NCBI GenBank assembly: GCA_964523705.1
Contig: CAZFYA010000001.1
Span: 121,420 to 185,419, forward strand
DNA: 64,000 bases
Direction: 5' to 3'
DNA from: an uncultured Gammaproteobacteria bacterium
GTDB taxonomy: Bacteria > Patescibacteriota > Microgenomatia > Levybacterales > UBA12049
Shown here: positions 23,486-60,391 of the stretch, one piece after another
Numbering within the stretch: position 1 is the stretch's first letter
How the letters are laid out: every line of letters starts with the position of its first letter
Notes under the pieces: generated by a model
The model's database searches: none
Seen by the model: only the letters and a program-made list of their open reading frames with translations
What the model was told of the DNA's origin: nothing
Made by a program: the position numbers and the translations under genes

Positions 23486-26400
23486 TTATTTTCCCTCTCC
23501 TTCACTGCCGGTTTTTAATCCTTCGGCAACCATTTCGCTTCCGCCAAGCTCTTTTACCATTTCTTCTGCTTCTTTTTCTACTTCTTCCTCAACTTTTTCT
23601 TCTTTCTCTTTTTCAGCTAATGGCTCTTCTTTTTCTTCTTCCTCAACTTGAGCACCAACCGGAGTAACGTTTAAGCCAAGAGCTGCTAATTCTTTAATTA
23701 ATACTTTAAAGCTCTCAGGAATCTTAGGAGTTGGAATATCTGTTCCTTTAACAATTGCCTCAAAGGCTTTTGCTCTTCCAACTACGTCATCTGATTTTAT
23801 AGTTAACATTTCCTGAAGAGTATACCTTGCCCGATGTGATTCAAGAGCCCAAACCTCCATTTCTCCTAGACGCTGTCCTCCCATTTGGGCTTTTCCACCA
23901 AGTGGCTGCTGTGTTACTAAAGAATATGGACCAGTACTTCTTGCGTGAGTTTTATCCTCAACCATGTGAATTAACTTCATCATGTATTCAAGCCCAACTA
24001 CAACCGGTTTTTCATAAGGCTCACCTGTTCTTCCGTCAAAAAGAATCGCTTTTCCATCAACTGGAAGCCCTGCTTTTTTTAAGTCATCAACAATTCTATC
24101 TTCCTCAATTTTTTCAAAAGCCGGAATACCCACCTTTCCTTTTAATCCTTTTTCTGCCCAGCCTAAATGAGCTTCTAATAGCTGTCCTAAATTCATACGG
24201 GCCAGTACTGAAATTGGAGAAATGATAATATCAACCGGTGTTCCATCAGCAAGTCGTGGCATGTCAACTTCAGGTAAGATTCTTGAAATTACACCTTTAT
24301 TTCCGTGTCTTCCGGCTAATTTATCTCCAATTACAACGTGTCGAAGTTGTGCAACCTCAACAATTATTTTTCTAATTGTTCCGGGTTCTAATTCATCGCC
24401 TTTTTTCCTATCTAAAATTTGAACATTAATAACAGTACCCCTCTCTCCATGAGGCATCCTCAAAGATGTATCCCTTACATCTCTTGCCTGTTCTCCAAAG
24501 ATAGCTCTTAATAGTCTTTCCTCTGCTGTTAATTCAGTTTCACCCTTTGGTGCAATTTTTCCAACTAAAATATCTCCTGATGAAACATCTGAGCCGACAA
24601 CTACAATTCCTTCTTCATCTAAGTTTGCCAAGTCCTCCTCTGAAACATTTGGAATATCTCTGGTTGTTTCTTCAGGTCCTAGTTTTGTTTCAACTACTGC
24701 TGCTTCGTGTTTTTCAATGTGAATTGAAGTTAAAACATCTTCTTTTACCAATTTTTCAGAAATGACAATTGCGTCTTCATAGCCTAGTCCGTCAAATGAG
24801 GTATAGGCAATTAAAAGATTTCTACCTAAAGCCAATTCTCCCTCATCTGATGCCGGTCCATCAATTAATAAATCACCTTTTTTAACTTTTTGTCCGGTTT
24901 TAACAACTGTTCTTTGAGTATAGGCAGTTGCTTGAGAAGTTCTTCTAAATGAATCAACTAAATATGTTTCTTCTTCTTTCCCTTTTCCCTTAATTATTAC
25001 TTTTGTTGCATCGGCATATGTAATTGTGCCATCAAATGGAGCAAGAACTACTCTTCCCATAACTTGGGAGATTTCTTTTTCCATACCTGTTCCAACCACC
25101 GGGCTTTCAGGTTTAACAAGTGGTACTGCCTGGCACTGCATGTGGGTTCCCATTAGGGCTCTATTGGCCTCATCATGGCTTACAAATGGAATTAAAGAAG
25201 CTGCTGCTCCAACAACTTGTCTTGGAACAATATCAACATATTCAATTCTCTCTTTTTCAGCCTCTAAAAACTCTCCTCTGTATCTTGCCGGAACACGCTC
25301 GCTTTTAATTGTTCCGTCTTCTCCTAATACTTCAGCATGAGAAATATAGTGTTTTCGCTCATCATCGGCTGTCATGTAGACGATTTCATTGGTTGCTTTA
25401 GAAGTAGTCTTTTTACCCTTTTTAGTATGAACCACTTTTCTATATGGTGTCTCTAAAAAACCAAATGGATTAACCCTTGAATAAAGTGACATGTAAGTTA
25501 CAAGGCCAATATTTGGTCCTTCAGGACTTCTAATAGGACAAATTCTTCCGTATTGGGAAGAATTAATGTCTCTGATTGAAAAGGCTGCTCTTTCTCTTGA
25601 AATTCCACCTGTTCCCATAACAGTTAATCTGTTTAAATTGTCAACTTCTGATAAGGGATTTGTTTGGTCTAAAATTGTGGATAACTGTGAGGTTCTGAAG
25701 AATTCATTAATTGAAGCCATAATTGGTCTGGCATTAATAAGGTTGGCAATTGAAATTGGCGCATCTGCCTGAATTAAACTCATTCTCTCTTTAATGCTTC
25801 GCTCAAGTCTTAAAACTCCGATTCTAAAAGCAGTTGTAGCAACTAATTCTCCAACACATCTAACTCTTCTATTGGCAAGACTGTCAATATCATCAACTCC
25901 GTCTCCGCCTTTGGCAAGCTCAATTAAGGTTGCAATTGTACCAACAATATCATCAATGGTTAAAATCCTGGTATTTTCATCTGCTTGATTAAAACCTGAA
26001 GCATCTTTTAGTTTTTTATTTATCTTATATCTTCCAACAGTTCCTAAATCATACCTTCTGTTATTAAAAAACATGCCGTTAAAGTTTTCTTTTACCTTAT
26101 CAATAACAATTGGTTCTCCTGGGTGCATTTTCTTAAAGATTTCAACAACTGCTTCATCTGAATCAACTGTGTCGTCTTTTTGTAAAGTATTATCAATAAA
26201 GGAGGTTTTTCCATCTGCTTCTAATTCCTTAAATCTCTCCTTAATATCTTCATTTGAGGATAAACCAACTGCTCTTAAAAAGGTTGATGCTAAAAACTTT
26301 CTTCTTCTGTCAATCTTAACCATAATGGTTTCATGCCTGGTGGTTGTAAACTCAAGCCATGAACCATGAACCGGTCTGATTTCTCCCATGTATAAGTTTT

Positions 26401-26878
26401 TTCCGGTTACATTATCCTGAACTGCTGTAAAGTATACTCCTGGAGATCTGACCAATTGATTTACAACTGCTCTTTCAATTCCATTAACAATAAATGTTCC
26501 TCTTTTTGTCATTTGTGGAATATCACCTAGGAATACTTCCTGGCTTATTTCTCCGTTGGTTTTTTTGTTAATTAGGGTTGCGTTTACGTAAAGTGGGGCG
26601 TCAAAGGTTAGTCCTTTAAGAAGACAAGTCTCAGGGGTATTAGAAGGCTTTCCAAACCTGTAGTCCTTAAGAATAAGTGTCCAGTTTTTCTCTGTAAAAT
26701 CTTCAATTGGGGATATTTCACCTAATACATCTTTAATGCCTTTTTCTATAAACAACTTATATGATTCTTTCTGGATTGAAAGAAGATCTAATTTTGGTAA
26801 TGAGGAATATGTTTTGCCCCAATTCTTTCTGACAAGAGTTTTACTCTCTTTGTTGTTTTTATTACTCTTCTTTGGCAT
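23486..26878 (-). CDS. rpoB: DNA-directed RNA polymerase subunit beta
   Basis: 1130 aa; conserved beta-subunit blocks; acidic C-terminal tail. Confidence 0.95.
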   Translation of the reverse strand: MPKKSNKNNKESKTLVRKNWGKTYSSLPKLDLLSIQKESYKLFIEKGIKDVLGEISPIEDFTEKNWTLILKDYRFGKPSNTPETCLLKGLTFDAPLYVNATLINKKTNGEISQEVFLGDIPQMTKRGTFIVNGIERAVVNQLVRSPGVYFTAVQDNVTGKNLYMGEIRPVHGSWLEFTTTRHETIMVKIDRRRKFLASTFLRAVGLSSNEDIKERFKELEADGKTSFIDNTLQKDDTVDSDEAVVEIFKKMHPGEPIVIDKVKENFNGMFFNNRRYDLGTVGRYKINKKLKDASGFNQADENTRILTIDDIVGTIATLIELAKGGDGVDDIDSLANRRVRCVGELVATTAFRIGVLRLERSIKERMSLIQADAPISIANLINARPIMASINEFFRTSQLSTILDQTNPLSEVDNLNRLTVMGTGGISRERAAFSIRDINSSQYGRICPIRSPEGPNIGLVTYMSLYSRVNPFGFLETPYRKVVHTKKGKKTTSKATNEIVYMTADDERKHYISHAEVLGEDGTIKSERVPARYRGEFLEAEKERIEYVDIVPRQVVGAAASLIPFVSHDEANRALMGTHMQCQAVPLVKPESPVVGTGMEKEISQVMGRVVLAPFDGTITYADATKVIIKGKGKEEETYLVDSFRRTSQATAYTQRTVVKTGQKVKKGDLLIDGPASDEGELALGRNLLIAYTSFDGLGYEDAIVISEKLVKEDVLTSIHIEKHEAAVVETKLGPEETTRDIPNVSEEDLANLDEEGIVVVGSDVSSGDILVGKIAPKGETELTAEERLLRAIFGEQARDVRDTSLRMPHGERGTVINVQILDRKKGDELEPGTIRKIIVEVAQLRHVVIGDKLAGRHGNKGVISRILPEVDMPRLADGTPVDIIISPISVLARMNLGQLLEAHLGWAEKGLKGKVGIPAFEKIEEDRIVDDLKKAGLPVDGKAILFDGRTGEPYEKPVVVGLEYMMKLIHMVEDKTHARSTGPYSLVTQQPLGGKAQMGGQRLGEMEVWALESHRARYTLQEMLTIKSDDVVGRAKAFEAIVKGTDIPTPKIPESFKVLIKELAALGLNVTPVGAQVEEEEKEEPLAEKEKEEKVEEEVEKEAEEMVKELGGSEMVAEGLKTGSEGEGK

Positions 26879-26964
26879 TTGAAAAATCTTTAGATAAATT
26901 CTTTAGAAATACAAAAAAAATCAACCAGACTTTCGTCCGTTAATTTTCTAATGAAAGTATTAGG

Positions 26965-26993
26965 TTTATATCACAGCCTATTATAGCTGTCAA
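26965..26993 (-). promoter_or_regulatory. rpoB promoter (-35 TTGACA, 17 bp, extended -10 TGaTATAAA)
   Basis: Minus-strand read: ttgaca gctataataggctgtga tataaa. Confidence 0.5.
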
Positions 26994-27001
26994 GAGGTAA
27001 A

Positions 27002-27030
27002 TTGATATGTGAAAATTATTGCAGTATAAT
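27002..27030 (+). promoter_or_regulatory. divergent promoter for the defence-island gene (-35 TTGATA, 17 bp, -10 TATAAT)
   Basis: Plus-strand read: ttgata tgtgaaaattattgcag tataat. Confidence 0.5.
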
Positions 27031-27045
27031 TACCTTTTAGCATTT

Positions 27046-28071
27046 ATGCCATCACAAGCAGAAATGAAACCGCTGCCTTCTTATCCATCTAAGGAAGGGA
27101 TTATTTTAAACTTCAGCGACCCTGACGTACAAGCAGATTTTTTAACAAGACCAAAAGAAGAACGACAAAAATTTATTAATGAGCAGCAAGAGTTTCAAGA
27201 CAAAGCAAGAAGTGTTTCAGAAGCTGTTTTTAAAAGAACATTGCCGTTTTTTACCCATGTTTATGAGTTTTTGGAAGATGATTTAATTGATAGAAGACAG
27301 CAATTATTTGAAGATAGACTTCTTCATAAAGAAGACTTAGCTATTTTCGAAGAAGAAAACCCAATCTACTCTTTGACAATTTCACTTGTACAAAAAGCGC
27401 TTGAAGCAATTCCTCCTGAATACAGAAAGGGCTTTGATATCAGGGACTACCTGGTTCCTGTCGGAGATAAAGATGAAGCCTTCTTAAGAACAGGAAAAAC
27501 TAAAAAAGATGATTTAAAAGCTTTTCTTTCTAGGGATAATCTAGAAATAATTTGGAATGTTGATACAGAAGACCACGATACAAATAATCATGTAAACCCC
27601 TCTAGCCCTGAATACGAATATATCTTACCTCACACATTTTCATTGCTTTGCGCATCTTTGGATTTAATAACCAGCCAGGAAATTAGAATAAGAAATTATG
27701 GTAAAACTGTTGAAGAAAGACAAGGTTTTTCAATTATTTATACTGATACTAAAACAGGAGAACAGGATATTGTAAATGAGAAACTAAACGAAGCTACAAA
27801 ATTAACACTGGTTTACTCAATGCTTTTAAAATATAGTCCACTTGGAAGATTTATTGATCAAGAAAAAGTTAACAATAGTGAAATGAAAAATCTTTGCTTG
27901 GATATCTCCGAGCTTGTTGATTTTCTCCCGCCTTATCAATTTCAACACTGCTACTTAACCGGTAATTTTGAATTACTACGTGAAAAAATGAAAGAAACCC
28001 AAAAACAAGAAGGAAAACCAGGAGAAAAAGTAATAGCAATTTTTAATAGATATAGCGGTATAAAGATATAG
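27046..28071 (+). CDS. hypothetical protein (about 340 aa), first gene of the defence island
   Basis: The ORF track uses a TTG start at 27019, which lies inside the predicted promoter. First ATG at 27046; alternative at 27064 (MKPLPSYPS). No recognisable domain. Confidence 0.45.
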   Translation: MPSQAEMKPLPSYPSKEGIILNFSDPDVQADFLTRPKEERQKFINEQQEFQDKARSVSEAVFKRTLPFFTHVYEFLEDDLIDRRQQLFEDRLLHKEDLAIFEEENPIYSLTISLVQKALEAIPPEYRKGFDIRDYLVPVGDKDEAFLRTGKTKKDDLKAFLSRDNLEIIWNVDTEDHDTNNHVNPSSPEYEYILPHTFSLLCASLDLITSQEIRIRNYGKTVEERQGFSIIYTDTKTGEQDIVNEKLNEATKLTLVYSMLLKYSPLGRFIDQEKVNNSEMKNLCLDISELVDFLPPYQFQHCYLTGNFELLREKMKETQKQEGKPGEKVIAIFNRYSGIKI

Positions 28072-28076
28072 GATAA

Positions 28077-28733
28077 TTAAGTTTTCTTATGATACACCTT
28101 TTCCCCAAGATGCCTATATTTACACCATGAACAATTAGGATTTTCCACTGGTGGTTTACCTTCTAATAATTTATTTATTTCTCCAATAAATTCTAAAAAG
28201 GAATCTTTTTTAATATCAACCTCTAACCATTGAGGTGGAAAATCAATAATTGCTTTTCCGTTTTCAAATTTTGTTTTATCAGGATACATAATAACAAGAC
28301 CAAGTTTTGTTATCTCTTTTGGTATCCCCCTTGCTGGATTTTCAAAAGCATAATGATATGCTTGAAGCTGTGTTTGGTACTTAGCAATCTTCTCCTCTGT
28401 TGGCTGACTTATTTTAAAATCAATAATTAAATACGTACCGTTCTTTTGTTTTACTAATAAATCATATTTTCCTTTAATATATATTTTTGTTTGGGGAATT
28501 ATCTTTGATTCAACAAAGCCTTCTTGGCTTTCAACAGTTCCCTCTGGTAAAAACTTAGATAATAATCTTAAATCCTGCCCTATTAATGCATTTTGAAGTC
28601 TTGTATTTAAAGCTGTAAAAACTCCTGGGAAAGGAGATGAAGGACGATAAATACCATGTTTTACCTTTAAATAATAACAACATTTACATTCTTCATAAAG
28701 ATAAGCAAAATCTGATGGGGATAGTTTATACAT
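28077..28733 (-). CDS. Cas4-like / RecB-family PD-(D/E)xK nuclease with Cys cluster (DUF83-like), not CRISPR-linked
   Basis: N-terminal LSPSDFAYLYEECKCCYYL resembles the Cas4 ...YLYCPR..YL motif. Nuclease motifs present: GKYDLL, IIDFK and QLQAYHYAF (QhxxY). C-terminal CSWCKYRHL. Confidence 0.65.
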   Translation of the reverse strand: MYKLSPSDFAYLYEECKCCYYLKVKHGIYRPSSPFPGVFTALNTRLQNALIGQDLRLLSKFLPEGTVESQEGFVESKIIPQTKIYIKGKYDLLVKQKNGTYLIIDFKISQPTEEKIAKYQTQLQAYHYAFENPARGIPKEITKLGLVIMYPDKTKFENGKAIIDFPPQWLEVDIKKDSFLEFIGEINKLLEGKPPVENPNCSWCKYRHLGEKVYHKKT

Positions 28734-28886
28734 AGAAAGATTATACGACTTTAATAGGAAAATTTATATAGTAATTTTACGTGGTTATGCCTTGAGAATG
28801 CGGGAATATCCTGTGTGCTCCTAATTCCTAACCTCTAAAAGACTAAAAACACCTAATTGAAATATAGACTTTTTTAAAACAAGGAA

Positions 28887-29444
28887 TCAAGAAGTTTTAG
28901 TTTTGAGTATATTATTAATTAAATCATTTCTATCCCAAAGAGTAATATTGTTTTTTTTAGCTAGATACATAGCTTCATTTGTATAGTTACTATTAGTCAC
29001 AACCATACCTAGATCACAGTTCCTAGGCTTAATAACCGTATTAACCTCTCTTATGGCATCTGGTCCTACTTTATTTTTATATCTTTTTGCTTGAACTGCT
29101 ATTTTTAGGTCATTCATTTCAATAATTAAATCTGAGCCTAAATCTCCTGTTCTCCCAACTTGTTTTACACTATATCCTAATTTAGTAAATAAACTTGTAA
29201 GAAATACCTCAAAATCCACTCCCGACATTTTATCCACCTCAGAGATCCCTGCTTTTCTTATTCTTTGATAGTTATAAATTTTAATAGCTATTATAGTGAT
29301 CATCATGACTAAAAGTAAAACAAATAACCACCAATTTTTAATAATTATTTGAGAATAAAGATTGAGTACTAAAGGAAATGATTGAAGCATCGGTTGAATT
29401 AGTATCTTTTCATAGTCCATTTGAAATGGTGTTGGTGTAGGCAT
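28887..29444 (-). CDS. membrane-anchored Mrr-like restriction endonuclease (Mrr_cat) domain protein
   Basis: TM helix (WWLFVLLLVMMITIIAIKIY) followed by GVDFEVFLTSLFTKLGYSV...GRTGDLGSDLII...IAVQAKRYKNKVGPDAIRE, matching the Mrr catalytic-domain pattern. Confidence 0.65.
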   Translation of the reverse strand: MPTPTPFQMDYEKILIQPMLQSFPLVLNLYSQIIIKNWWLFVLLLVMMITIIAIKIYNYQRIRKAGISEVDKMSGVDFEVFLTSLFTKLGYSVKQVGRTGDLGSDLIIEMNDLKIAVQAKRYKNKVGPDAIREVNTVIKPRNCDLGMVVTNSNYTNEAMYLAKKNNITLWDRNDLINNILKTKTS

Positions 29445-29480
29445 AAATTAATAGAACTACAAATATATTAAGAAGTCAAG

Positions 29481-29548
29481 CTTAAAATCCAAATATTTCG
29501 AGGGCTTTGTAGATAAAAGGGCTGGCCAGACTATTGCTTTAAGAGTTC
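29481..29548. repeat. direct repeat copy 1 (~68 bp); decayed duplicate of the 3' end of gene 31622-31873
   Basis: cttaaaatccaaatatttcgagggctttgtagataaaagggctggccagactattgctttaagagttc, against copy 2 at 31621-31689. Confidence 0.8.
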
Positions 29549-30312
29549 TCTTTTATAAAATCTTTTAATAAAAATGCACTAAAAATCAGTTTATTTGATG
29601 TCTTAATTGTTCTATGCATTTCTGTATTGCTTTCAAACCAAGGAATACCATCTATAATGGTAATTCCTTCTGTTTTTTTAGAATTAATATTTGCTATGCT
29701 AACAGCGCTTCTAAATTGACCTAACTGGGTTCCTCCGTCGTCTGTGATAAACTTTGCTTCAATTATAAAAAAATGCTTATCTGTTTTAAAAAGTGCATCA
29801 ATTCCTTTTTCAAGATAATTTATGCCTAGTTCTTCTTTTGCATATTCCGATAACTTTCTGTCTGAACCTTCTAAAAATCCGTATTTTGTTTTTTTAAAGT
29901 CTCTTTTATTGTAAAAGGGATATTTTTCTTTTTTTAACCAAGCACGAAAACAGGGTCCATATCTCCTGGAATCAGATTTTGGAGTAGAAGAAAGTTTAAT
30001 TATTCCTTTTTCTCCGATTTCAAAAAGCTTTTTAGCAATAATGTTCACAATCTTAGGATTTTTATCCACTAAATGCTTATGCTTTCTCAGTGATGCAACA
30101 TACGAATTATTAAACGGAAATCTTTTAAGAAGAAGCACTTTACTGAGTAATTCGTTTTTATCTTTTTTAAGATAAGCCTTTTTGATCTCATCCCTAAGTG
30201 TTTGATCAATTTTTCTTTCGAGCCCCTCGCCTATTGGGTAAATTTCCAACAATTTGTCTAAATATCCGTTTGAATTTGCTAACTCAAGGCTTTTTTTAGT
30301 CCATTTATTCAT
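29539..30312 (-). CDS. putative type II restriction endonuclease (PD-(D/E)xK-like)
   Basis: 257 aa, 24 nt downstream of and co-oriented with the MTase; ...DKHFFIIEAKF... is a candidate D-x(n)-E-x-K catalytic core. Confidence 0.5.
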   Translation of the reverse strand: MNKWTKKSLELANSNGYLDKLLEIYPIGEGLERKIDQTLRDEIKKAYLKKDKNELLSKVLLLKRFPFNNSYVASLRKHKHLVDKNPKIVNIIAKKLFEIGEKGIIKLSSTPKSDSRRYGPCFRAWLKKEKYPFYNKRDFKKTKYGFLEGSDRKLSEYAKEELGINYLEKGIDALFKTDKHFFIIEAKFITDDGGTQLGQFRSAVSIANINSKKTEGITIIDGIPWFESNTEMHRTIKTSNKLIFSAFLLKDFIKENS

Positions 30313-30336
30313 TGCAATTGCGTATTATACAACAAG

Positions 30337-31542
30337 TTATAAGTTTATTCTTGTTTGCTCGGAGTTAAAATAAGAATTTTTTTTATATACCTTATTAAAA
30401 TAAACGTAATTAATTAATTTATACGAAAAGTCAAAGCTTATTCTTTTTCTATTATTGTCTCTAAAATTAGTCAAGAAAAAAGATAAATGTTCACTTCTTG
30501 CCTTGTTTAATTCATTATTAAAATAGTCAATAATCTTTCGTTGTGTTTGTATATCTAAATCTTTTTTGAACAGCAAATAGGCCATGTTTCGTGAAGTTTG
30601 TTTTCCTACTAATCCTGAAACTTCATATTTTCTGATGTCCTCAAGCATAATCTTATCTTTATTTTTTGTATCAATGGCCTTTAACAGAATTATATTCTTG
30701 CTTATTCTTTTAAATAAACTATCGTCTATTGTGTATTCATTAACCTCTTTTACGTGATTATAGGCTAATTTTATTTTATATTTTCCTTTTTTAAGCATGT
30801 CTTCTGTTAGTCTATAAATTCCAAGTATGTTTTTAACTTTTGAGATCTTATTATCAAACTCGCCACCCATTCTCCATCCATATTTTTTTTCTAGTTTTAA
30901 TTTAATTTCCTTTTTTTCTGGAAAAATCAATGCATCTATTTCATTTGTCTCGCTATCATCTTTTTTCAATTTATAATAAAAAGATATTACATTATATGTT
31001 GTATCCTCAAAAACTTTTTCATAAAAAATATTTAATTTTTCTATTTTAAATTTTTTAAAAAATAAATCTCTAATTTTCTTCGAATTTTTAGCAGACAAAA
31101 AATTTAGTGGCACTATCATAATTCCCTCTTCTGAATCAAGAACTGAATTTATAGAAACTTGGTATAAATCTTCAAAGCTACTGTTTAAGCCGGAAAAATA
31201 ATCAATTTTTGTTTTTTGGGAAGCTTTATTTTTGTGAAGATATGGCGGATTAGTTAATAAAAATTTGTATTTCTTAGGATATTTAATTCCATCATTTAAA
31301 AATACCTCTTTGTTATCAACTAAATTTTTAGCTATTTCGTATCCAACTATTGAAGAAGCACCATGTTTTTTTGCCCATTTTATTAGATCTCTATTTCCAG
31401 CAAAAGGATCTACTACTATTTTTCCCTTAATAAACTTACCTAAGCCAAATAAAACATAATCTGATTTTTTTGTAAAAAACTGACCTAATTGTCTTTTTTC
31501 ATCTTTTTTAAAATATGATTCTTTTAAGGCCTGTTTTTTCAT
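30337..31542 (-). CDS. N6-adenine DNA methyltransferase, gamma class
   Basis: Motif I VVDPFAGNRDL (about aa 45) then motif IV LLTNPPY (about aa 98), with a long C-terminal target-recognition region. Confidence 0.8.
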   Translation of the reverse strand: MKKQALKESYFKKDEKRQLGQFFTKKSDYVLFGLGKFIKGKIVVDPFAGNRDLIKWAKKHGASSIVGYEIAKNLVDNKEVFLNDGIKYPKKYKFLLTNPPYLHKNKASQKTKIDYFSGLNSSFEDLYQVSINSVLDSEEGIMIVPLNFLSAKNSKKIRDLFFKKFKIEKLNIFYEKVFEDTTYNVISFYYKLKKDDSETNEIDALIFPEKKEIKLKLEKKYGWRMGGEFDNKISKVKNILGIYRLTEDMLKKGKYKIKLAYNHVKEVNEYTIDDSLFKRISKNIILLKAIDTKNKDKIMLEDIRKYEVSGLVGKQTSRNMAYLLFKKDLDIQTQRKIIDYFNNELNKARSEHLSFFLTNFRDNNRKRISFDFSYKLINYVYFNKVYKKNSYFNSEQTRINL

Positions 31543-31620
31543 CTTAATTTCAAATTTATAATACCACTTTAATTAAATCTCGTAAAGAAATTTATTAAAT
31601 AATATAAAGAGGTTTTTGTA

Positions 31621-31689
31621 CTTAAAATCCAAATACTTCGAGGGCCTTGTAGATAAGAAAGGCGGGCCAGACTATTGCTTTAAGAATTC
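31621..31689. repeat. direct repeat copy 2 (intact; encodes the C-terminus ...GILKAIVWPAFLIYKALEVFGF*)
   Basis: About 88% identical to copy 1, with one 1-bp indel. Confidence 0.8.
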
Positions 31690-31873
31690 CTAGGACTCCT
31701 GCTCCAAAGGTTTCTGCATGTTGAATAAAGTAAATTGCTGCTCCGACAAATCCCAAACCATATACTGCACTTCCACCACCATGATTGTGGTTTTTGCAAA
31801 CATACTTTTTATAATCCTTTTTCTCTTTTTCTGCCATCAAAATGAATATATCACCTGTTTTTAGGCAATGCAA
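31622..31873 (-). CDS. small membrane protein (likely start at the internal Met, MAEKEKKD...)
   Basis: 83-aa ORF; hydrophobic GLGFVGAAIYF and WPAFLIY segments. Its 3' end is duplicated as the flanking repeat. Confidence 0.45.
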   Translation of the reverse strand: MHCLKTGDIFILMAEKEKKDYKKYVCKNHNHGGGSAVYGLGFVGAAIYFIQHAETFGAGVLGILKAIVWPAFLIYKALEVFGF

Positions 31874-33648: not shown

Positions 33649-36078
33649 ATGAAACTTCCGTTTTCAAAAATGTTTGAAAAAAAAGAAAAGCCAGAGTTTT
33701 ATTTAGCGTTTTTACTTCGCCATGAAAAAGCAATTGCTGTAATCTTTGAACAGACAGGAACAGCAGCTAAAGTTGTTGGTGAGGGGGAAGCATCTTTTGA
33801 AAAAAATATTGAAGAGGCTACTTTTGAAGAACTACTTAGTGTTTCAGATAAAGCAATTTCAAAAGCAGAGGAGAATGTTCCGGAAGACAGTAGTACTTTA
33901 AAAACACTCTTTGGTTTAAAAGAAGGTTGGATAGCAGAAGATAAGATAAAAAAAGAGTATCTTGAAAGACTTAAAAAAATTAGTGACGAATTAGGCCTTT
34001 CTCCAATTGGCTTTATAACTATAACTGAGGCAATTACTGACTTTTTAAAAAAAGAAGAAGGAATTCCCCTATCTGCAATTTTAGCTGAAGTTGGAAAAGC
34101 TTATGTTTCAGTATCTTTGGTTAAGGCCGGGAAAATTTTAGAGACAAAATCATCTGAAATTCATGAAAACCCTGCCTTTACCACTGATGTACTTCTTAAA
34201 CATTTAGAAATACCAGATGTACTCCCATCAAAAGTAATTTTATACAACGGAGAAGATGAAGACTTATCGCAAAAATTTATCCATCATAAATGGAGCAAAG
34301 CTCTTCCCTTTTTACATCTCCCACAAATTATTTCTCTTCCTAAAGGCTTTGATGCCAAAGCAATCTTGCAGGGTGCAGCAAGCAAGATGGGTTTTGAAAT
34401 AATATCTGAAGGTCCTCTTAAAAGTACAGAAGAAAAAGAGGAACTTCCCTCTTTTGAAAAAATGGAATATAAAGATGAAGCATCTCCTAAAAAAGACGAA
34501 GAAGAAAAAAAAGAAGAGAGTGAGGAAAAAGAAGAGGAGAAAGAAGGAGAAGAGAAAGAGGAAGAAATAAACTTTGTTGAAAATGAAGATTCAATTGAAA
34601 AATTCGGCTTTATTGAAAATGAAGACGTAGTAAACATACCTCCTGCTAAAAAGGGACTTGAAAAAGAGGAAGAAGAAAAAGAAAAGGAAGAATTAAAAGA
34701 AGAAGACAAGGATAAAAAAGAAGAACAAAAAGAAAGTAAAGAAGAATTAAAAATCCACCAAGCTCCCCTAACCGCAGTTGAGCAACATGATGAAGAAGAT
34801 GAAGAAGAATATGGTATTGAAAGAAAAAGAGGAAAAAATATTTTTACAAAAATACTTACTGTTATTCCTCTTTTCTTTTCCTCTATTTTTAAAAAATTAA
34901 GACTTCCCGGAAATAAAGGAGCACTACTTTTGTTAAGAAATAAATTTATTGCAATTCCCCTTTTAGTAATCCTTGCCATTATTGCAGTTTATGTAATTTC
35001 TTTCTTCACTTTAAAAACAGAAGTAGTTTTAACGTTAAATCCAAAACTTGAGGAGGAAAAACAAGATGTTACTTTTTCAGCAGAAACAACAGACGTTGAT
35101 GAAAAAATAATTTTTGGTAAGTTTATTGAAGCCTCTCTTAAAGATTCAGTCTCAACCTCAACAACCGGTAAAAAAGAAACCGGAGAAAAAGCAAAAGGAG
35201 AAGTAACTTTTTTCAGTCGTTTTACTTCTAAAAAAACAATTGCTAAGGGAACTGTACTTACTTCATCAAATGATATTGATTTTACTCTTGATGAAGATGT
35301 TTCAGTTGCATCTTCATCTGCTGATGCCAGTGAAGACCCGGCAACTGCTAAGGGAAAAGTAACTGCTAAAAATATTGGTAAGGAAAGTAATCTTCCATCA
35401 GGTGCTAAATTTTCAGTTGGCAATTTATCCCCGGGAGATATTATTGCCAAAAACGAAAGTGCATTTTCAGGCGGAACTAAAAAAGAAATAACCGTAGTAG
35501 CAGAAGAAGACAGTGAAAAACTACTAACAGAAATTGTTGAAAAACTGAAAGAAGAGGCATTAGAAGAATTAACTAAAAAAATTAATAGCGAAAAAGAGGT
35601 TTTACTTCCGGTTGTAATTTCATCTGAAGTTGATGAAGAAAACTTTGATAAGGAAGTTGGAGATGAGTCTTCAAAGCTTAATCTTGAAGCAACGGTTCTT
35701 TTTCAGGGACTATCCTATTCAAAAGAAGATTTATTATCTTTTACCAAATCTCTTCTTGATAAAGAGCTTTTAGGAAAAATGGAAATAGATGAAAAAAACA
35801 TTAAAGTGGATGTTGAAGACATTAAAGAAAAAGATGAAGATAGCGACACTGTTTCTGCAACTTTAAAGATTAAAGCTCCTCTTTTACCAAGTCTTAAAAA
35901 AGAAGAACTTGCTAAAAACATCAGCGGTAAATCAAAAGAAGAAGCAAAAAATATGCTTTTAGACATTTCTCAAGTTGTTGATGTAGATATTAATCCTTCT
36001 CTTCCTCTTCCGTTTCTAACCAACTATCTGCCCAAGTTTTCCAATAATATAGAAATTGTCACCAAAGTTAATGAGTAA
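33649..36078 (+). CDS. large bitopic membrane protein: cytoplasmic domain with possible actin-like (PilM/FtsA-like) fold, E/K-rich low-complexity linker, one TM helix, ~370-aa extracytoplasmic domain
   Basis: 809 aa. N-terminal segments (AIAVIFEQTGTAAKVVGEG; LSPIGFITITEAITD...LAEVGKAYVSVSLVKAGKI) resemble the phosphate-1 and phosphate-2 regions of PilM/FtsA. TM helix IAIPLLVILAIIAVYVISFF. Starts 6 nt after alaS and overlaps the sortase gene by 23 nt. Confidence 0.4.
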   Translation: MKLPFSKMFEKKEKPEFYLAFLLRHEKAIAVIFEQTGTAAKVVGEGEASFEKNIEEATFEELLSVSDKAISKAEENVPEDSSTLKTLFGLKEGWIAEDKIKKEYLERLKKISDELGLSPIGFITITEAITDFLKKEEGIPLSAILAEVGKAYVSVSLVKAGKILETKSSEIHENPAFTTDVLLKHLEIPDVLPSKVILYNGEDEDLSQKFIHHKWSKALPFLHLPQIISLPKGFDAKAILQGAASKMGFEIISEGPLKSTEEKEELPSFEKMEYKDEASPKKDEEEKKEESEEKEEEKEGEEKEEEINFVENEDSIEKFGFIENEDVVNIPPAKKGLEKEEEEKEKEELKEEDKDKKEEQKESKEELKIHQAPLTAVEQHDEEDEEEYGIERKRGKNIFTKILTVIPLFFSSIFKKLRLPGNKGALLLLRNKFIAIPLLVILAIIAVYVISFFTLKTEVVLTLNPKLEEEKQDVTFSAETTDVDEKIIFGKFIEASLKDSVSTSTTGKKETGEKAKGEVTFFSRFTSKKTIAKGTVLTSSNDIDFTLDEDVSVASSSADASEDPATAKGKVTAKNIGKESNLPSGAKFSVGNLSPGDIIAKNESAFSGGTKKEITVVAEEDSEKLLTEIVEKLKEEALEELTKKINSEKEVLLPVVISSEVDEENFDKEVGDESSKLNLEATVLFQGLSYSKEDLLSFTKSLLDKELLGKMEIDEKNIKVDVEDIKEKDEDSDTVSATLKIKAPLLPSLKKEELAKNISGKSKEEAKNMLLDISQVVDVDINPSLPLPFLTNYLPKFSNNIEIVTKVNE

Positions 36079-59451: not shown

Positions 59452-59816
59452 TACTGGTTAAAAAAATTAAGACTATCTAATAAGTTTATAATCCAGTTTT
59501 TAAAATTTTCCACTATTAAATTTATCCCTTGTTTTTCTTTTTTAACATCTTCCTCTTCTTTTTTTGGGGTTATTGTTGCAGAAGGGGTAACTTCTTTATT
59601 CGAGTTAACTTCAACCTTATGCACTCCCGGTTCTGTAGTTTCTAAAATCTCCTTTTCTCCATTTGCTTCTACTTCAATTTTTGTATATACATCTCCCCCT
59701 GAAACATTTGTTTCAACTATTGCTTCTGCTTTTGCATCTCCTGTTTGAATAGTTTGAGCAAAAGCAGGATTAGCTAAAAAAAGAAAAGCAAAAAGGACTA
59801 AAAATTTTTTTATCAT
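59448..59816 (-). CDS. small secreted protein (TGDA motif; related to repeats of the neighbouring proteins)
   Basis: 122 aa; signal peptide (ANPAFA/QT); QTGDAKAEAIVETNVSGGDV. Confidence 0.5.
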   Translation of the reverse strand: MIKKFLVLFAFLFLANPAFAQTIQTGDAKAEAIVETNVSGGDVYTKIEVEANGEKEILETTEPGVHKVEVNSNKEVTPSATITPKKEEEDVKKEKQGINLIVENFKNWIINLLDSLNFFNQY

Positions 59817-60391
59817 TATTTATTAATAGGTATTGCAGTTACTATTAATCGTTTTTCATCAAAAAAACCTGTACAAGTATAAAGAGTTAATGTTTCGGTC
59901 TTTGTTGGCTGAATTACTTCTTTTTGATTAGGGAAAACCTCTGTTATTTTATTTACTCTATATTGATACCATTTATCTTTTGTTAAAACATAAATTAAAT
60001 CTTTTTCTTTTACATCTTTTAAATTATGAAAAAATCCTTCTTTTGCATGAGCAAAAATAACAATGTTTCCATTCTCCCCTGGATATCCACTACCAAGTCC
60101 ATAGGACGCAGTTTTTTCGGAAAGTTCCCAATAACCATTTACTATTTTTGATTCAGTAATTGGTAAATCAATATCTACTTTTGGAATAATAATTCTAATT
60201 GGGGTATTTTCACTTTTTTTATTTGAATAAAGGCTTGAATCAACTTGAATTGGGCTTTTGCTTTCTTTTTCAGGGGAAAATTTTGGATAACCTGTTAGAA
60301 GTGTAAAAGCAAGAACAATGAAAATAAGGGCAATAACTTTATTAAGAATATTTTTTCTTTCTTTGGAGATTTTTTTCTTTTTGCGGGGCAT
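59816..60391 (-). CDS. sortase family transpeptidase (sortase 2)
   Basis: N-terminal TM anchor; catalytic His (NIVIFAHAKEG), Cys (LTLYTCTG) and Arg (KRLIVTA). Confidence 0.8.
   Translation of the reverse strand: MPRKKKKISKERKNILNKVIALIFIVLAFTLLTGYPKFSPEKESKSPIQVDSSLYSNKKSENTPIRIIIPKVDIDLPITESKIVNGYWELSEKTASYGLGSGYPGENGNIVIFAHAKEGFFHNLKDVKEKDLIYVLTKDKWYQYRVNKITEVFPNQKEVIQPTKTETLTLYTCTGFFDEKRLIVTAIPINK

Follow-up and report, generated by a model that had tools for sequence, protein, structure and literature searches.

The gene for a 218-aa Cas4-like nuclease and the gene for a 341-aa orphan protein that meets it tail-to-tail are probably unrelated, adjacent through inherited gene order in the window (the whole 64-kb stretch of DNA analysed here), the nuclease belonging to the genomic backbone beside a recurrent landing site and the orphan being weakly constrained. 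The nuclease is part of the vertically inherited backbone of many Patescibacteria and flanks this landing site rather than serving as an island effector, and across 63 loci its immediate upstream neighbours show a strong excess of restriction-modification and Fic genes. The original prediction had offered two readings, a two-gene defence module with the nuclease as effector or a solo Cas4-like nuclease beside an unrelated gene. It is the second that the missing co-occurrence of the two genes and the stand-alone status of the nuclease support, and a false lead is removed in that the pair is not a new two-gene defence system. The nuclease can instead be placed in an already noted, uncharacterised solo Cas4-like group that is widespread in small-genome bacteria belonging to the Candidate Phyla Radiation (CPR), with two testable additions: its CxxC…CxxC cysteines and a restriction-modification/Fic landing site at its start codon. 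Should the landing-site pattern prove true in a controlled survey, the gene could serve in practice to mark variable defence cargo in Patescibacteria genomes and would offer a clue to the way these bacteria trade genes for defence.

The nuclease and its place in the genome

The features of the gene pair are as follows:
27002..27030, plus strand: sigma-70-like promoter TTGATA-17-TATAAT ahead of the 341-aa gene (11/12 matches, top site in 26700-29600)
27046..28071, plus strand: 341-aa orphan gene (P0001), fast-evolving, from a family of four representative members
27649..27663, plus strand: C-A-S-L-D (C202-A-S-L-D206), at the HExxH position of all known relatives
28077..28733, minus strand: 218-aa stand-alone Cas4-like / RecB-family PD-(D/E)XK nuclease, conserved backbone gene (PDDEXK_1)
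28110..28133, minus strand: C-terminal C201-S-W-C204-K-Y-R-H208 of the nuclease, from a 30-sequence alignment
28677..28688, minus strand: N-terminal C16-x-x-C19 of the nuclease, C16 and C19 being invariant in 30 sequences

The Cas4/RecB hallmarks claimed for the 218-aa protein are borne out, as its translation contains every motif that had been quoted (SPSDFAYLYEEC, GKYDLL, IIDFK, QLQAYHYAF, CKCC and CSWC) and passes the gathering threshold of Pfam PDDEXK_1 (PF12705; 45.7 bits against a cut-off of 22, E 9.9e-12), a family also found in 120/120 of its relatives among the matches listed. PDDEXK_1 was the only Pfam family found, Cas_Cas4 giving no match at E<=1; the score against TIGR00372 (31.6 bits) fell below the 65-bit cut-off for Cas4 proper, and the PADLOC Cas4 models matched at only 1e-7 to 3e-9. 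Alignment of 30 nuclease sequences shows the RecB-type motifs to be intact (D91, D105, K107, Q122 and Y126 invariant), together with invariant C16, C19, C201 and C204 and the residues Y206, R207 and H208. Both of the predicted cysteine clusters, CKCC and CSWC, are thus present, but C18 of the former varies (C, L or H) and the pattern is C16-x2-C19 … C201-x2-C204 rather than the C…CX2CX5C of Cas4, with Gly at position 210 where the last Cas4 cysteine would stand. The predicted model (pLDDT 85.8) matched AdnA (1e-6), the Cas4 structure 4ic1 (4.5e-6) and EXO5 (5e-6) in Foldseek, as well as MGME1 and ACE1. The four cysteines would be expected to hold an Fe-S or Zn 'staple' tying the N- and C-terminal helices. 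By analogy with its family, the protein is putatively a metal-dependent enzyme that processes DNA ends for repair or recombination, with imported or restriction-cut DNA as further possible substrates.

Relatives of the nuclease form 733 database clusters at 62-92% identity across Patescibacteria, and the gene was located at 69 genome loci in Microgenomates, Berkelbacteria, WWE3 and Paceibacterota. Selection on it is strongly purifying (dN/dS 0.07 and 0.05). No neighbour family recurs on either side at the 69 loci, the one or two genes downstream being varied housekeeping genes, and the neighbour census revealed no conserved helicase partner. As predicted, cas genes were absent from the window ORFs examined and no CRISPR-like repeat array was found in the 64 kb; cas families were likewise absent among the neighbours of 63 nuclease loci and from the annotated contigs. 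Viral contigs contained no nuclease relatives.

The original prediction had further described the region as an insertion that breaks the usual rplKAJL-rpoBC synteny, for which, as a recent event, the analysis gave no support. The rpoB-rpoC-rpsL-rpsG-fusA order is intact in the window, and no rplJ or rplL was found among the window ORFs between rpoB and the upstream alaS. The ORFs at 59.4-60.4 kb, considered as candidates for rplJ and rplL, were rejected, being a sortase and proteins without a family match. The same alaS...nuclease...rpoB-rpoC order is present in a distant relative (L054; nuclease 56% identical), so that the arrangement is an ancient feature of the backbone rather than a disruption made by the island. 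Other genes lie between the nuclease and rpoB in L054, and neither a hidden 341-aa homologue nor a structured RNA was detected in that gap.

The orphan gene and the pair

The ORF list gives the pair as 27019..28071 (plus strand, 350 aa from a TTG) and 28077..28733 (minus strand, 218 aa), the two stop ends being separated by 5 bp (28072-28076), tail-to-tail as predicted. The orphan's own promoter was also correctly foreseen, and since it covers the TTG at 27019 the real start is the ATG at 27046; the 350-aa ORF is real, but its product is 341 aa long, the length of the database protein P0001, which agrees with this start.

An exhaustive HMMER search of 1.84 billion representative proteins recovered only P0122 (37%), P0123 (30%) and P0124 (27%) besides P0001, so that the family has four representative members; word-indexed searches with the single sequence or a three-sequence profile recovered only the query and P0122, and scans of metagenome and viral contigs found no relatives. 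A phage origin of either gene was rejected, no relatives of either being found in viral contigs. Its orthologue shares 35% identity with it (dN 0.58, dN/dS 0.49; range of dN/dS 0.38-0.49), in a genome in which the genes on either side reach 83-92%. Profile and fold searches, which had been proposed for both proteins, placed the nuclease but gave no family or fold for the orphan: no family scored above threshold in Pfam, NCBIfam, PADLOC or PHROGs, and Foldseek against the PDB found no match. A YjeJ match, restricted to the window copy, reached 21.6 bits, below the 27-bit cut-off, and eL22 (PDB profile search, E 0.012) was treated as a chance match.

In the alignments P0122, P0123, P0124 and the L003 copy carry HE[AS][LV]H (HEALH, HESVH, HESLH), and the window copy has no HExxH; the downstream residues N244, L247 and E249 are invariant in all family members. 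The HExxH lost from the window copy is likely the catalytic motif of the family, whose members may be zincin-like metallohydrolases, as suggested by one short motif, known from four or five sequences and with no profile or fold match, and the window copy would then be a catalytically dead or repurposed derivative. The gene is lineage-restricted and weakly constrained, with no demonstrable link to the nuclease. It offers a clear example of a very fast-evolving orphan beside rpoB, and gives no present handle on function.

Homologues of the two genes had been expected to recur as a conserved pair if they formed a module, and they do not: the 341-aa gene adjoins the nuclease only in the window and its nearest relatives (L001-L004), a confinement that reflects inherited synteny, none of its homologues was adjacent in 63 other nuclease loci (hmmsearch), and on the P0123 and P0124 contigs the homologue adjoins no nuclease. 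That the two genes form a module for defence, abortive infection or a toxin-antitoxin-like function, if only in this lineage, with the 341-aa protein as sensor, inhibitor or regulator, would accord with the convergent arrangement (a 5-bp gap in the window, a 4-bp overlap of the two genes in L001 and L003), with fast evolution of the kind often seen in arms-race genes, and with the strong promoter that the orphan has to itself. We nevertheless consider it extremely improbable, and the model is largely refuted because co-occurrence is lacking. More than 700 nuclease homologues are without a 341-aa partner, the nuclease family as a whole has no conserved neighbour, the intervening genes of L054 separate the nuclease from rpoB, and convergent genes cannot share one transcript. 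The PADLOC check suggested with the original prediction gave no match for the 341-aa protein, the dN/dS of the nuclease (0.05-0.07) is housekeeping-like, and neither gene is found in viral contigs.

The restriction island and the recurrent landing site

Upstream of the nuclease, the window contains:
28738..31621, minus strand: inserted restriction island of 2.9 kb (Mrr-like, Tsp45I-like, NPPY methyltransferase), between the membrane-protein gene and the nuclease start codon
28887..29444, minus strand: Mrr-like restriction endonuclease, hydrophobic segment at the N terminus (Mrr_cat 4e-30)
29481..29548, no strand: 68-nt direct repeat, first copy, duplicated from the small membrane-protein gene at its 3' end
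29539-30312, minus strand: Tsp45I-type type II restriction enzyme (Tsp45I 7.8e-59; PADLOC REase_II 9e-45)
30337-31542, minus strand: probable N6-adenine methyltransferase of the Tsp45I-type enzyme (DPFAGN and NPPY in translation)
31621..31689, no strand: 68-nt direct repeat, second copy, the genuine 3' end of the gene for the 83-aa membrane protein
31622..31873, minus strand: 83-aa membrane-protein gene, conserved and bounding the variable site at its far side (orthologues in L001, L003 and L060)

The Mrr-like endonuclease and restriction-modification system reported next to the pair are thus both there, the NPPY methyltransferase giving no match in Pfam. Mrr homologues also lie beside the nuclease gene in L041 and beside a 5' fragment of it in L078. 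The pair had been placed at the head of a defence island, which is right as to position but not as to membership. In L060 the site is empty, with the membrane-protein gene and the nuclease 47 nt apart, and homology between the window and L060 stops at 31622 and restarts at 28737; the Mrr and Tsp45I block (28738-31621) therefore entered 4 nt ahead of the start codon of the nuclease, and the nuclease is a conserved flank of the island, not a member. Other cargo occupies the same site in L001 (a racemase and two unknown genes) and L003 (NmeDI-like and HNH genes). The window block was inserted in at least two events, and the two 68-nt copies (94% and 91% identity, 2140 nt apart) bracket the Tsp45I restriction-modification cassette. 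No integrase or transposase is among the three island genes, and at the far end of the island tblastn detected neither a piece of the nuclease 5' end nor an att-like repeat. As the window island lacks such a 5' fragment, the recombination mechanism proposed below is drawn from other loci.

The same position is occupied by similar cargo well beyond the close relatives. In a census of 63 loci, based on simple ORF calls and giving totals rather than per-locus counts for the 25 most frequent families, with no genome-wide baseline, the two genes upstream of the nuclease matched the Pfam families ResIII (5), Fic (4), N6_Mtase (3), Methylase_S (3), Eco57I (3) and GmrSD (2), none of which is in the downstream 25 most frequent families. 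The PADLOC models matched numbered 490 upstream and 55 downstream, methyltransferase families persist at positions -3 to -7, and the upstream cargo as a whole comprises type I, II and IIG systems, GmrSD, Mrr, Fic, Bro-N and a protease. No integrase or recombinase family appears in the 25 most frequent at -1/-2 or at -3 to -7, where single cases may exist. A single mobile Fic cassette was rejected, as the nearby Fic genes fall in several distant subfamilies.

Several loci keep duplicated fragments of the nuclease gene's 5' end. In L024, L055 and L073 a truncated second copy of this end, 85-115 bp long and 92-95% identical, borders cargo of the Fic, Bro-N or protease kind, and orphan 5' fragments are present in L074-L078. 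Att-site-like constraint on the DNA of the 5' end was rejected, the normalised synonymous codon entropy being 0.88 over the first 25 codons and 0.87 over the rest of the gene (p = 0.81).

The short spacer right before the start codon thus repeatedly receives restriction-modification, Fic and similar cargo. We propose that this exchange would proceed by homologous or homology-facilitated recombination, with the 5' coding block of the gene, which is nearly invariant, as one anchor. A broader version, in which the 5' block of the solo Cas4-like gene is a homology anchor shared across Patescibacteria, allowing integrase-free swapping of restriction-modification, Fic and other defence cassettes and leaving duplicated 5' fragments, and in which the nuclease works with the restriction system that has landed (for instance through resection or recycling of the cut DNA in hosts dependent on imported nucleotides), is conceivable, and we put it forward tentatively.

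Restriction genes are co-directional and tightly spaced with the nuclease in the window, in L003, in L005 and in the P0035 contig, and a functional link between the nuclease and restriction-modification systems is therefore possible. The nuclease could on this basis be an accessory of the neighbouring restriction systems, resecting or degrading fragments as RecBCD/AddAB do or recycling nucleotides, with selection as well as insertion bias keeping the genes adjacent. The enrichment of restriction-modification genes upstream, mostly on the strand of the nuclease (43/54 genes at position -1), the gap of only 10 bp after hsdR in the P0035 contig and the nearest folds of the nuclease, which are the end-resecting nucleases AdnA/AddAB, EXO5 and Cas4, are consistent with such a role, as are Cas4-like PF12705 domains fused to UvrD that are tied to type III restriction-modification systems (PMC5704561). 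We think it unlikely, however, given that the nuclease has no adjacent restriction-modification genes in L060 (empty) and L007 (HflX upstream), that the cargo is so heterogeneous, that duplicated 5' fragments of the nuclease point to insertion events, and that the nuclease protein stays 92% identical as island content turns over entirely.

DNA homology between moderately related loci is limited to the nuclease ORF on both sides, ending within about 25 nt of it where the genes are 80-88% identical, which would also fit a nuclease gene that moves by itself, whether as a single-gene cassette or at the end of restriction-modification islands that are mobile. The 5' fragments found on contigs other than that of the intact gene (L078 compared with L012, from one genome) could be read in the same way. 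Such mobility seems very unlikely, the position between alaS and rpoBC being stable from the window to L054, selection being strongly purifying with no extra synonymous-site constraint, and the nuclease being absent from viral contigs; most of the compared loci moreover come from very distant lineages, so that loss of synteny is expected, and published analysis describes solo-cas4 as mostly vertically inherited (PMC5704561).

Comparison with known systems

Solo Cas4 genes are common in the CPR (= Patescibacteria), and solo-cas4 is in general mostly vertically inherited, according to Hudaiberdiev et al. 2017 (PMC5704561). The window nuclease resembles the solo Cas4 / PF12705 proteins of the CPR described there in being a stand-alone protein of about 220 aa without cas genes or CRISPR, with RecB motifs and four cysteines, in small-genome hosts, under purifying selection, mostly vertical and of no known function. 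It differs in that its best model is PF12705 and not Cas4, and in its CxxC…CxxC cysteines, and the recurrent restriction-modification/Fic cargo upstream is not met with in the available part of PMC5704561. A Cas4-family nuclease recruited to non-CRISPR defence is ACE1 (PMC12094033; PDB 9iab, 9iac), a structural match at E ~1e-4, but at a TM of only 0.35; ACE1 is co-encoded with a long-A pAgo, whereas the window nuclease is without a specific partner.

The best matches by structure (E 1e-6 to 1e-4) include the nuclease domains of AdnAB and AddAB, human EXO5 and MGME1, which share the D…DxK…QxxxY core and act in DNA-end resection or as 5'-flap exonucleases. The domains of AdnA and AddB, however, belong to helicase-nucleases of ~1000 aa, and the window protein has no helicase. 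The Cas4 protein SSO0001 (PDB 4ic1) is likewise a metal-dependent RecB-type nuclease with a cysteine 'staple' and has a similar fold (E 4.5e-6, TM 0.50/0.52), with weak core similarity (E 0.048). Cas4, as reportedly described by Lemak in 2013 and Zhang in 2012, has one N-terminal cysteine and a C-terminal CX2CX5C. The window protein is 17% identical to SSO0001, lacks a cas1/cas2 context, and has Gly at 210 and an invariant C19 instead.

Defence-island hotspots flanked by conserved core genes are a general concept, and the site upstream of the nuclease resembles them in its empty state in one relative, different cargo in others, conserved flanks and a dominance of restriction-modification genes. 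Unlike such hotspots, it has no integrase or tRNA gene, its junction lies a few nucleotides from a start codon, and it is marked by partial duplications of the 5' end and by recurrence across very divergent Patescibacteria.

The gene pair and the 341-aa orphan

Our analysis places the two open reading frames where the original prediction had them, tail to tail with 5 bp separating their stop codons, and the promoter claimed for the plus-strand gene is the top-scoring promoter-like site of the region (11/12 matches). This site overlaps the TTG at 27019, and the true start is therefore the ATG at 27046, giving 341 aa, the length of the database entry (P0001). Of the claimed neighbours, the Mrr-like endonuclease and the restriction enzyme were recovered by Pfam and the methyltransferase by its motifs, and the window holds no CRISPR-like repeat array, as claimed, and no tRNA genes.

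The gene pair and the adjoining restriction genes (window positions)
27002-27030: promoter-like site TTGATA-17-TATAAT
27019-28071, plus strand: open reading frame of the 341-aa protein
28077-28733, minus strand: Cas4-like nuclease
28887-29444, minus strand: Mrr_cat protein (Pfam 4e-30)
Minus strand: Tsp45I-type restriction enzyme (Pfam 7.8e-59)
30337-31542, minus strand: 401-aa protein with methyltransferase motifs DPFAGN and NPPY (no Pfam match)

The other flank is rpoB-rpoC-rpsL-rpsG-fusA. RpoB (23486-26878) has an acidic, Glu/Lys-rich C-terminal tail of ~60 residues (…EEEEKEEPLAEKEKEEKVEEEVEKEAEEMVKELGG…), similar to that of RpoB in another nuclease locus, L054.

The two genes had been proposed as a defence module, and this pair is not real: homologues were adjacent only in the window and in loci L001-L004, where a single narrow lineage has kept the order by descent. 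When 1.84 billion representative proteins were searched exhaustively with HMMER, only four were returned, the query, P0122 (37%), P0123 (30%) and P0124 (27%), and a family profile search of the other 63 nuclease loci found no member. P0122 is convergent with a 92%-identical nuclease orthologue (L001/L079), a DUF8412/OmdA gene converges on P0123, which has no nuclease beside it, and the neighbours of P0124 are small unrelated genes. In L054 the nuclease is separated from rpoB by two further small genes, and our 63-locus census found no recurrent neighbour of the nuclease, upstream or downstream. With no recurrent partner, and P0123 and P0124 situated elsewhere, the alternative offered originally, a solo Cas4-like nuclease beside an unrelated gene, is favoured. 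The 341-aa protein matched no family in Pfam, NCBIfam, PHROGs or PADLOC, the last of which gives no backing to its suggested role as a defence protein.

The 341-aa gene is best explained as an unrelated, fast-evolving orphan that has lost its family motif. Between the window and the L001/L079 genome its protein is 35% identical, with dN 0.58, dS 1.18 and dN/dS 0.49, whereas flanking proteins are 83-92% identical (dN 0.04-0.11, dN/dS 0.07-0.18). In the closer pair L001/L003 its dS equals that of its neighbours (0.14), yet dN/dS is 0.38, and the gene is therefore orthologous and weakly constrained. All relatives carry HE[AS][LV]H, with an invariant N-x-x-L-x-E ~44 residues further on, and judged by this motif the family may be zincins; the window copy lacks it and has C-A-S-L-D in its place (27649-27663). 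AlphaFold gave a model of moderate quality (pLDDT 71), to which Foldseek found no match in the PDB. The sole PDB profile match, to eL22 (E 0.012, 18 bits), is probably due to chance; it covers family profile positions 65-159 (window ~27240-27520), around a conserved Y-R-K-x-F-N-I-R-D-Y-L. In three independent assemblies a contig breaks off at the 341-aa orthologue, either 68 bp ahead of it or inside it (L079/L080 1-68; L003 9541), which suggests population-level heterogeneity or assembly-breaking sequence.

Cargo in front of the nuclease

In L060, whose nuclease is 93% identical to that of the window in protein and 84.6% in DNA, the site is empty (1397-1443), with 47 nt from a small membrane-protein gene to the nuclease start codon. 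Homology with the window breaks off at 31622 and resumes at 28737, and 28738-31621 is therefore an insertion. The L060 spacer holds a TTGACT-17-TATTTT promoter-like element that the window lost to the insertion. The same site is occupied in L001 by a racemase and two unknown genes, and in L003 by NmeDI-like and HNH genes with a racemase remnant. In the window a direct repeat of 68 nt (29481-29548 and 31621-31689; 94% and 91% identical), duplicating the 3' end of this small membrane-protein gene (83 aa), encloses just the Tsp45I enzyme with its methyltransferase and leaves Mrr outside, so that the island was built by at least two insertions. The insertion had been said to break rpoBC synteny, but the order alaS...nuclease...rpoB-rpoC is old, being common to L054 (nuclease 56% identical), and no recent break has occurred.

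At its N-terminus the Mrr-like endonuclease carries a hydrophobic segment, probably membrane-spanning (NWWLFVLLLVMMITIIAIKIY). Homologues of it adjoin the nuclease gene at L041 and, at L078, a fragment of that gene. The 401-aa protein, the partner of the Tsp45I enzyme, with no Pfam or NCBIfam match and a weak PADLOC match to PglX, would on its two motifs be a very divergent N6-adenine methyltransferase. Adjoining alaS is an 809-aa protein (33649-36078) with a long Glu/Lys-rich low-complexity stretch (repeats 34493-34830), whose orthologues bear a faint Baseplate_J annotation; a sortase gene follows, and a second lies at 59816-60391.

Families beside the nuclease at 63 non-redundant loci (ORFs called by a simple, crude script; raw counts from the 25 most frequent families)
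Upstream -1, -2, Pfam: ResIII 5, Fic 4, N6_Mtase 3, Methylase_S 3, Eco57I 3, GmrSD 2, HSDR_N 2, HNH 2, Bro-N 2
Downstream +1, +2, Pfam: assorted housekeeping genes
Upstream -1 to -3, PADLOC: 490 models matched; type I methyltransferase 6 proteins, specificity subunit 5, SoFic 4
Downstream +1 to +3, PADLOC: 55 models matched, 1-2 proteins each
Upstream -3 to -7, Pfam: further methyltransferases and DUF3800

The best-supported reading is that the nuclease flanks a recurrent landing site for restriction-modification and Fic genes, a new observation of modest weight that needs a controlled survey. Among annotated contigs, a type I system stops 10 bp short of the nuclease on the P0035 contig, EcoRI-methylase, GmrSD, Dcm and HATPase genes precede it in L005, and L007 has no such restriction-type genes ahead of it. 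In the window, L003, L005 and the P0035 contig the restriction genes are co-directional with the nuclease and tightly spaced, as they would be were it functionally linked to these systems, which we consider unlikely. No recombinase family was among the 25 most frequent Pfam families at -3 to -7; in the islands of L010-L073 these positions hold DUF3800 (5/140 proteins) and EcoRI-type methylases (4/140). Genes with a Fic domain, drawn from several distant subfamilies, were counted 12 times no more than 10 kb from the nuclease gene or one of its fragments.

Partial copies of the nuclease gene (its first 17-73 codons overall) also occur, upstream of the intact gene or as orphans.

Copies of the nuclease 5' end (locus, positions)
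L024 245-340: upstream of intact gene
L055 7957-8214: upstream of intact gene
L073 9236-9307: upstream of intact gene
L074 10001-10084: orphan, adjoining UvrD-like helicase and ATPase
L075 873-959: orphan, adjoining Fic gene
L076 5564-5632: orphan, adjoining type IIG restriction-modification gene
L077 6981-7031: orphan
L078 10004-10093: orphan, adjoining Mrr homologue

The first three, truncated at codon ~24, 33 or 43 (85-115 bp; 92-95% identical to the intact gene), share the strand of that gene, lie 0.7-2 kb upstream of it and enclose cargo of Fic, of Bro-N plus Fic, or of an aspartyl protease. The orphans stand alone beside defence-type genes, and one genome has a fragment (L078) and an intact gene (L012) on separate contigs. 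The first 25 codons show no extra synonymous constraint relative to the rest of the gene, which rules out a dedicated att element and makes the conserved 5' DNA a by-product of the invariant peptide. Most economically, cargo would be exchanged at the nuclease 5' end by homology-based recombination.

The nuclease and known Cas4-like proteins

The large, strongly conserved nuclease family comprises 733 database clusters, the best 120 of which are 62-92% identical and ~220 aa each. It occurs at 69 loci of species-representative genomes (Gottesman-, Woese-, Ames-, Roizman-, Shapiro-, Levy- and Beckwithbacteria, Berkelbacteria, WWE3 and Paceibacterota). Compared with the nearest relative its dN/dS is 0.07, and for the sister pair L001/L003 it is 0.05. 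Of the Cas4/RecB hallmarks originally claimed, the catalytic residues hold (D91, D105, K107, Q122 and Y126 are invariant in a 30-sequence alignment). The protein clears the Pfam PDDEXK_1 threshold (45.7 bits vs 22), matches PADLOC Cas4 models only weakly and scores under the NCBIfam cut-off for Cas4 (31.6 bits vs 65). Its AlphaFold model (pLDDT 85.8) matches the AdnA nuclease domain, Cas4 SSO0001 (TM 0.50/0.52), human EXO5, MGME1, ACE1 and AddAB. On the best-supported reading the protein is a solo nuclease, Cas4-like and part of the conserved backbone, with predicted activity and a predicted Fe-S/Zn site.

In the same alignment C16, C19, C201, C204 and H208 are invariant and C18 is variable, so the cysteines form CxxC…CxxC, whereas Cas4, AddB and EXO5 have one N-terminal cysteine and CX2CX5C. 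For an archaeal solo Cas4, metal-dependent DNase activity and a [4Fe-4S] cluster have been demonstrated (PMC12501428). According to Hudaiberdiev et al. (PMC5704561), solo Cas4 is common in the Candidate Phyla Radiation (Patescibacteria), solo-cas4 genes in general are for the most part inherited vertically, evolve under ordinary purifying selection and have no known function, and Cas4-like proteins of PF12705 type stand as a group apart from CRISPR-associated Cas4. The nuclease adds a member to this known but uncharacterised group, one whose cysteines are arranged in a variant way.
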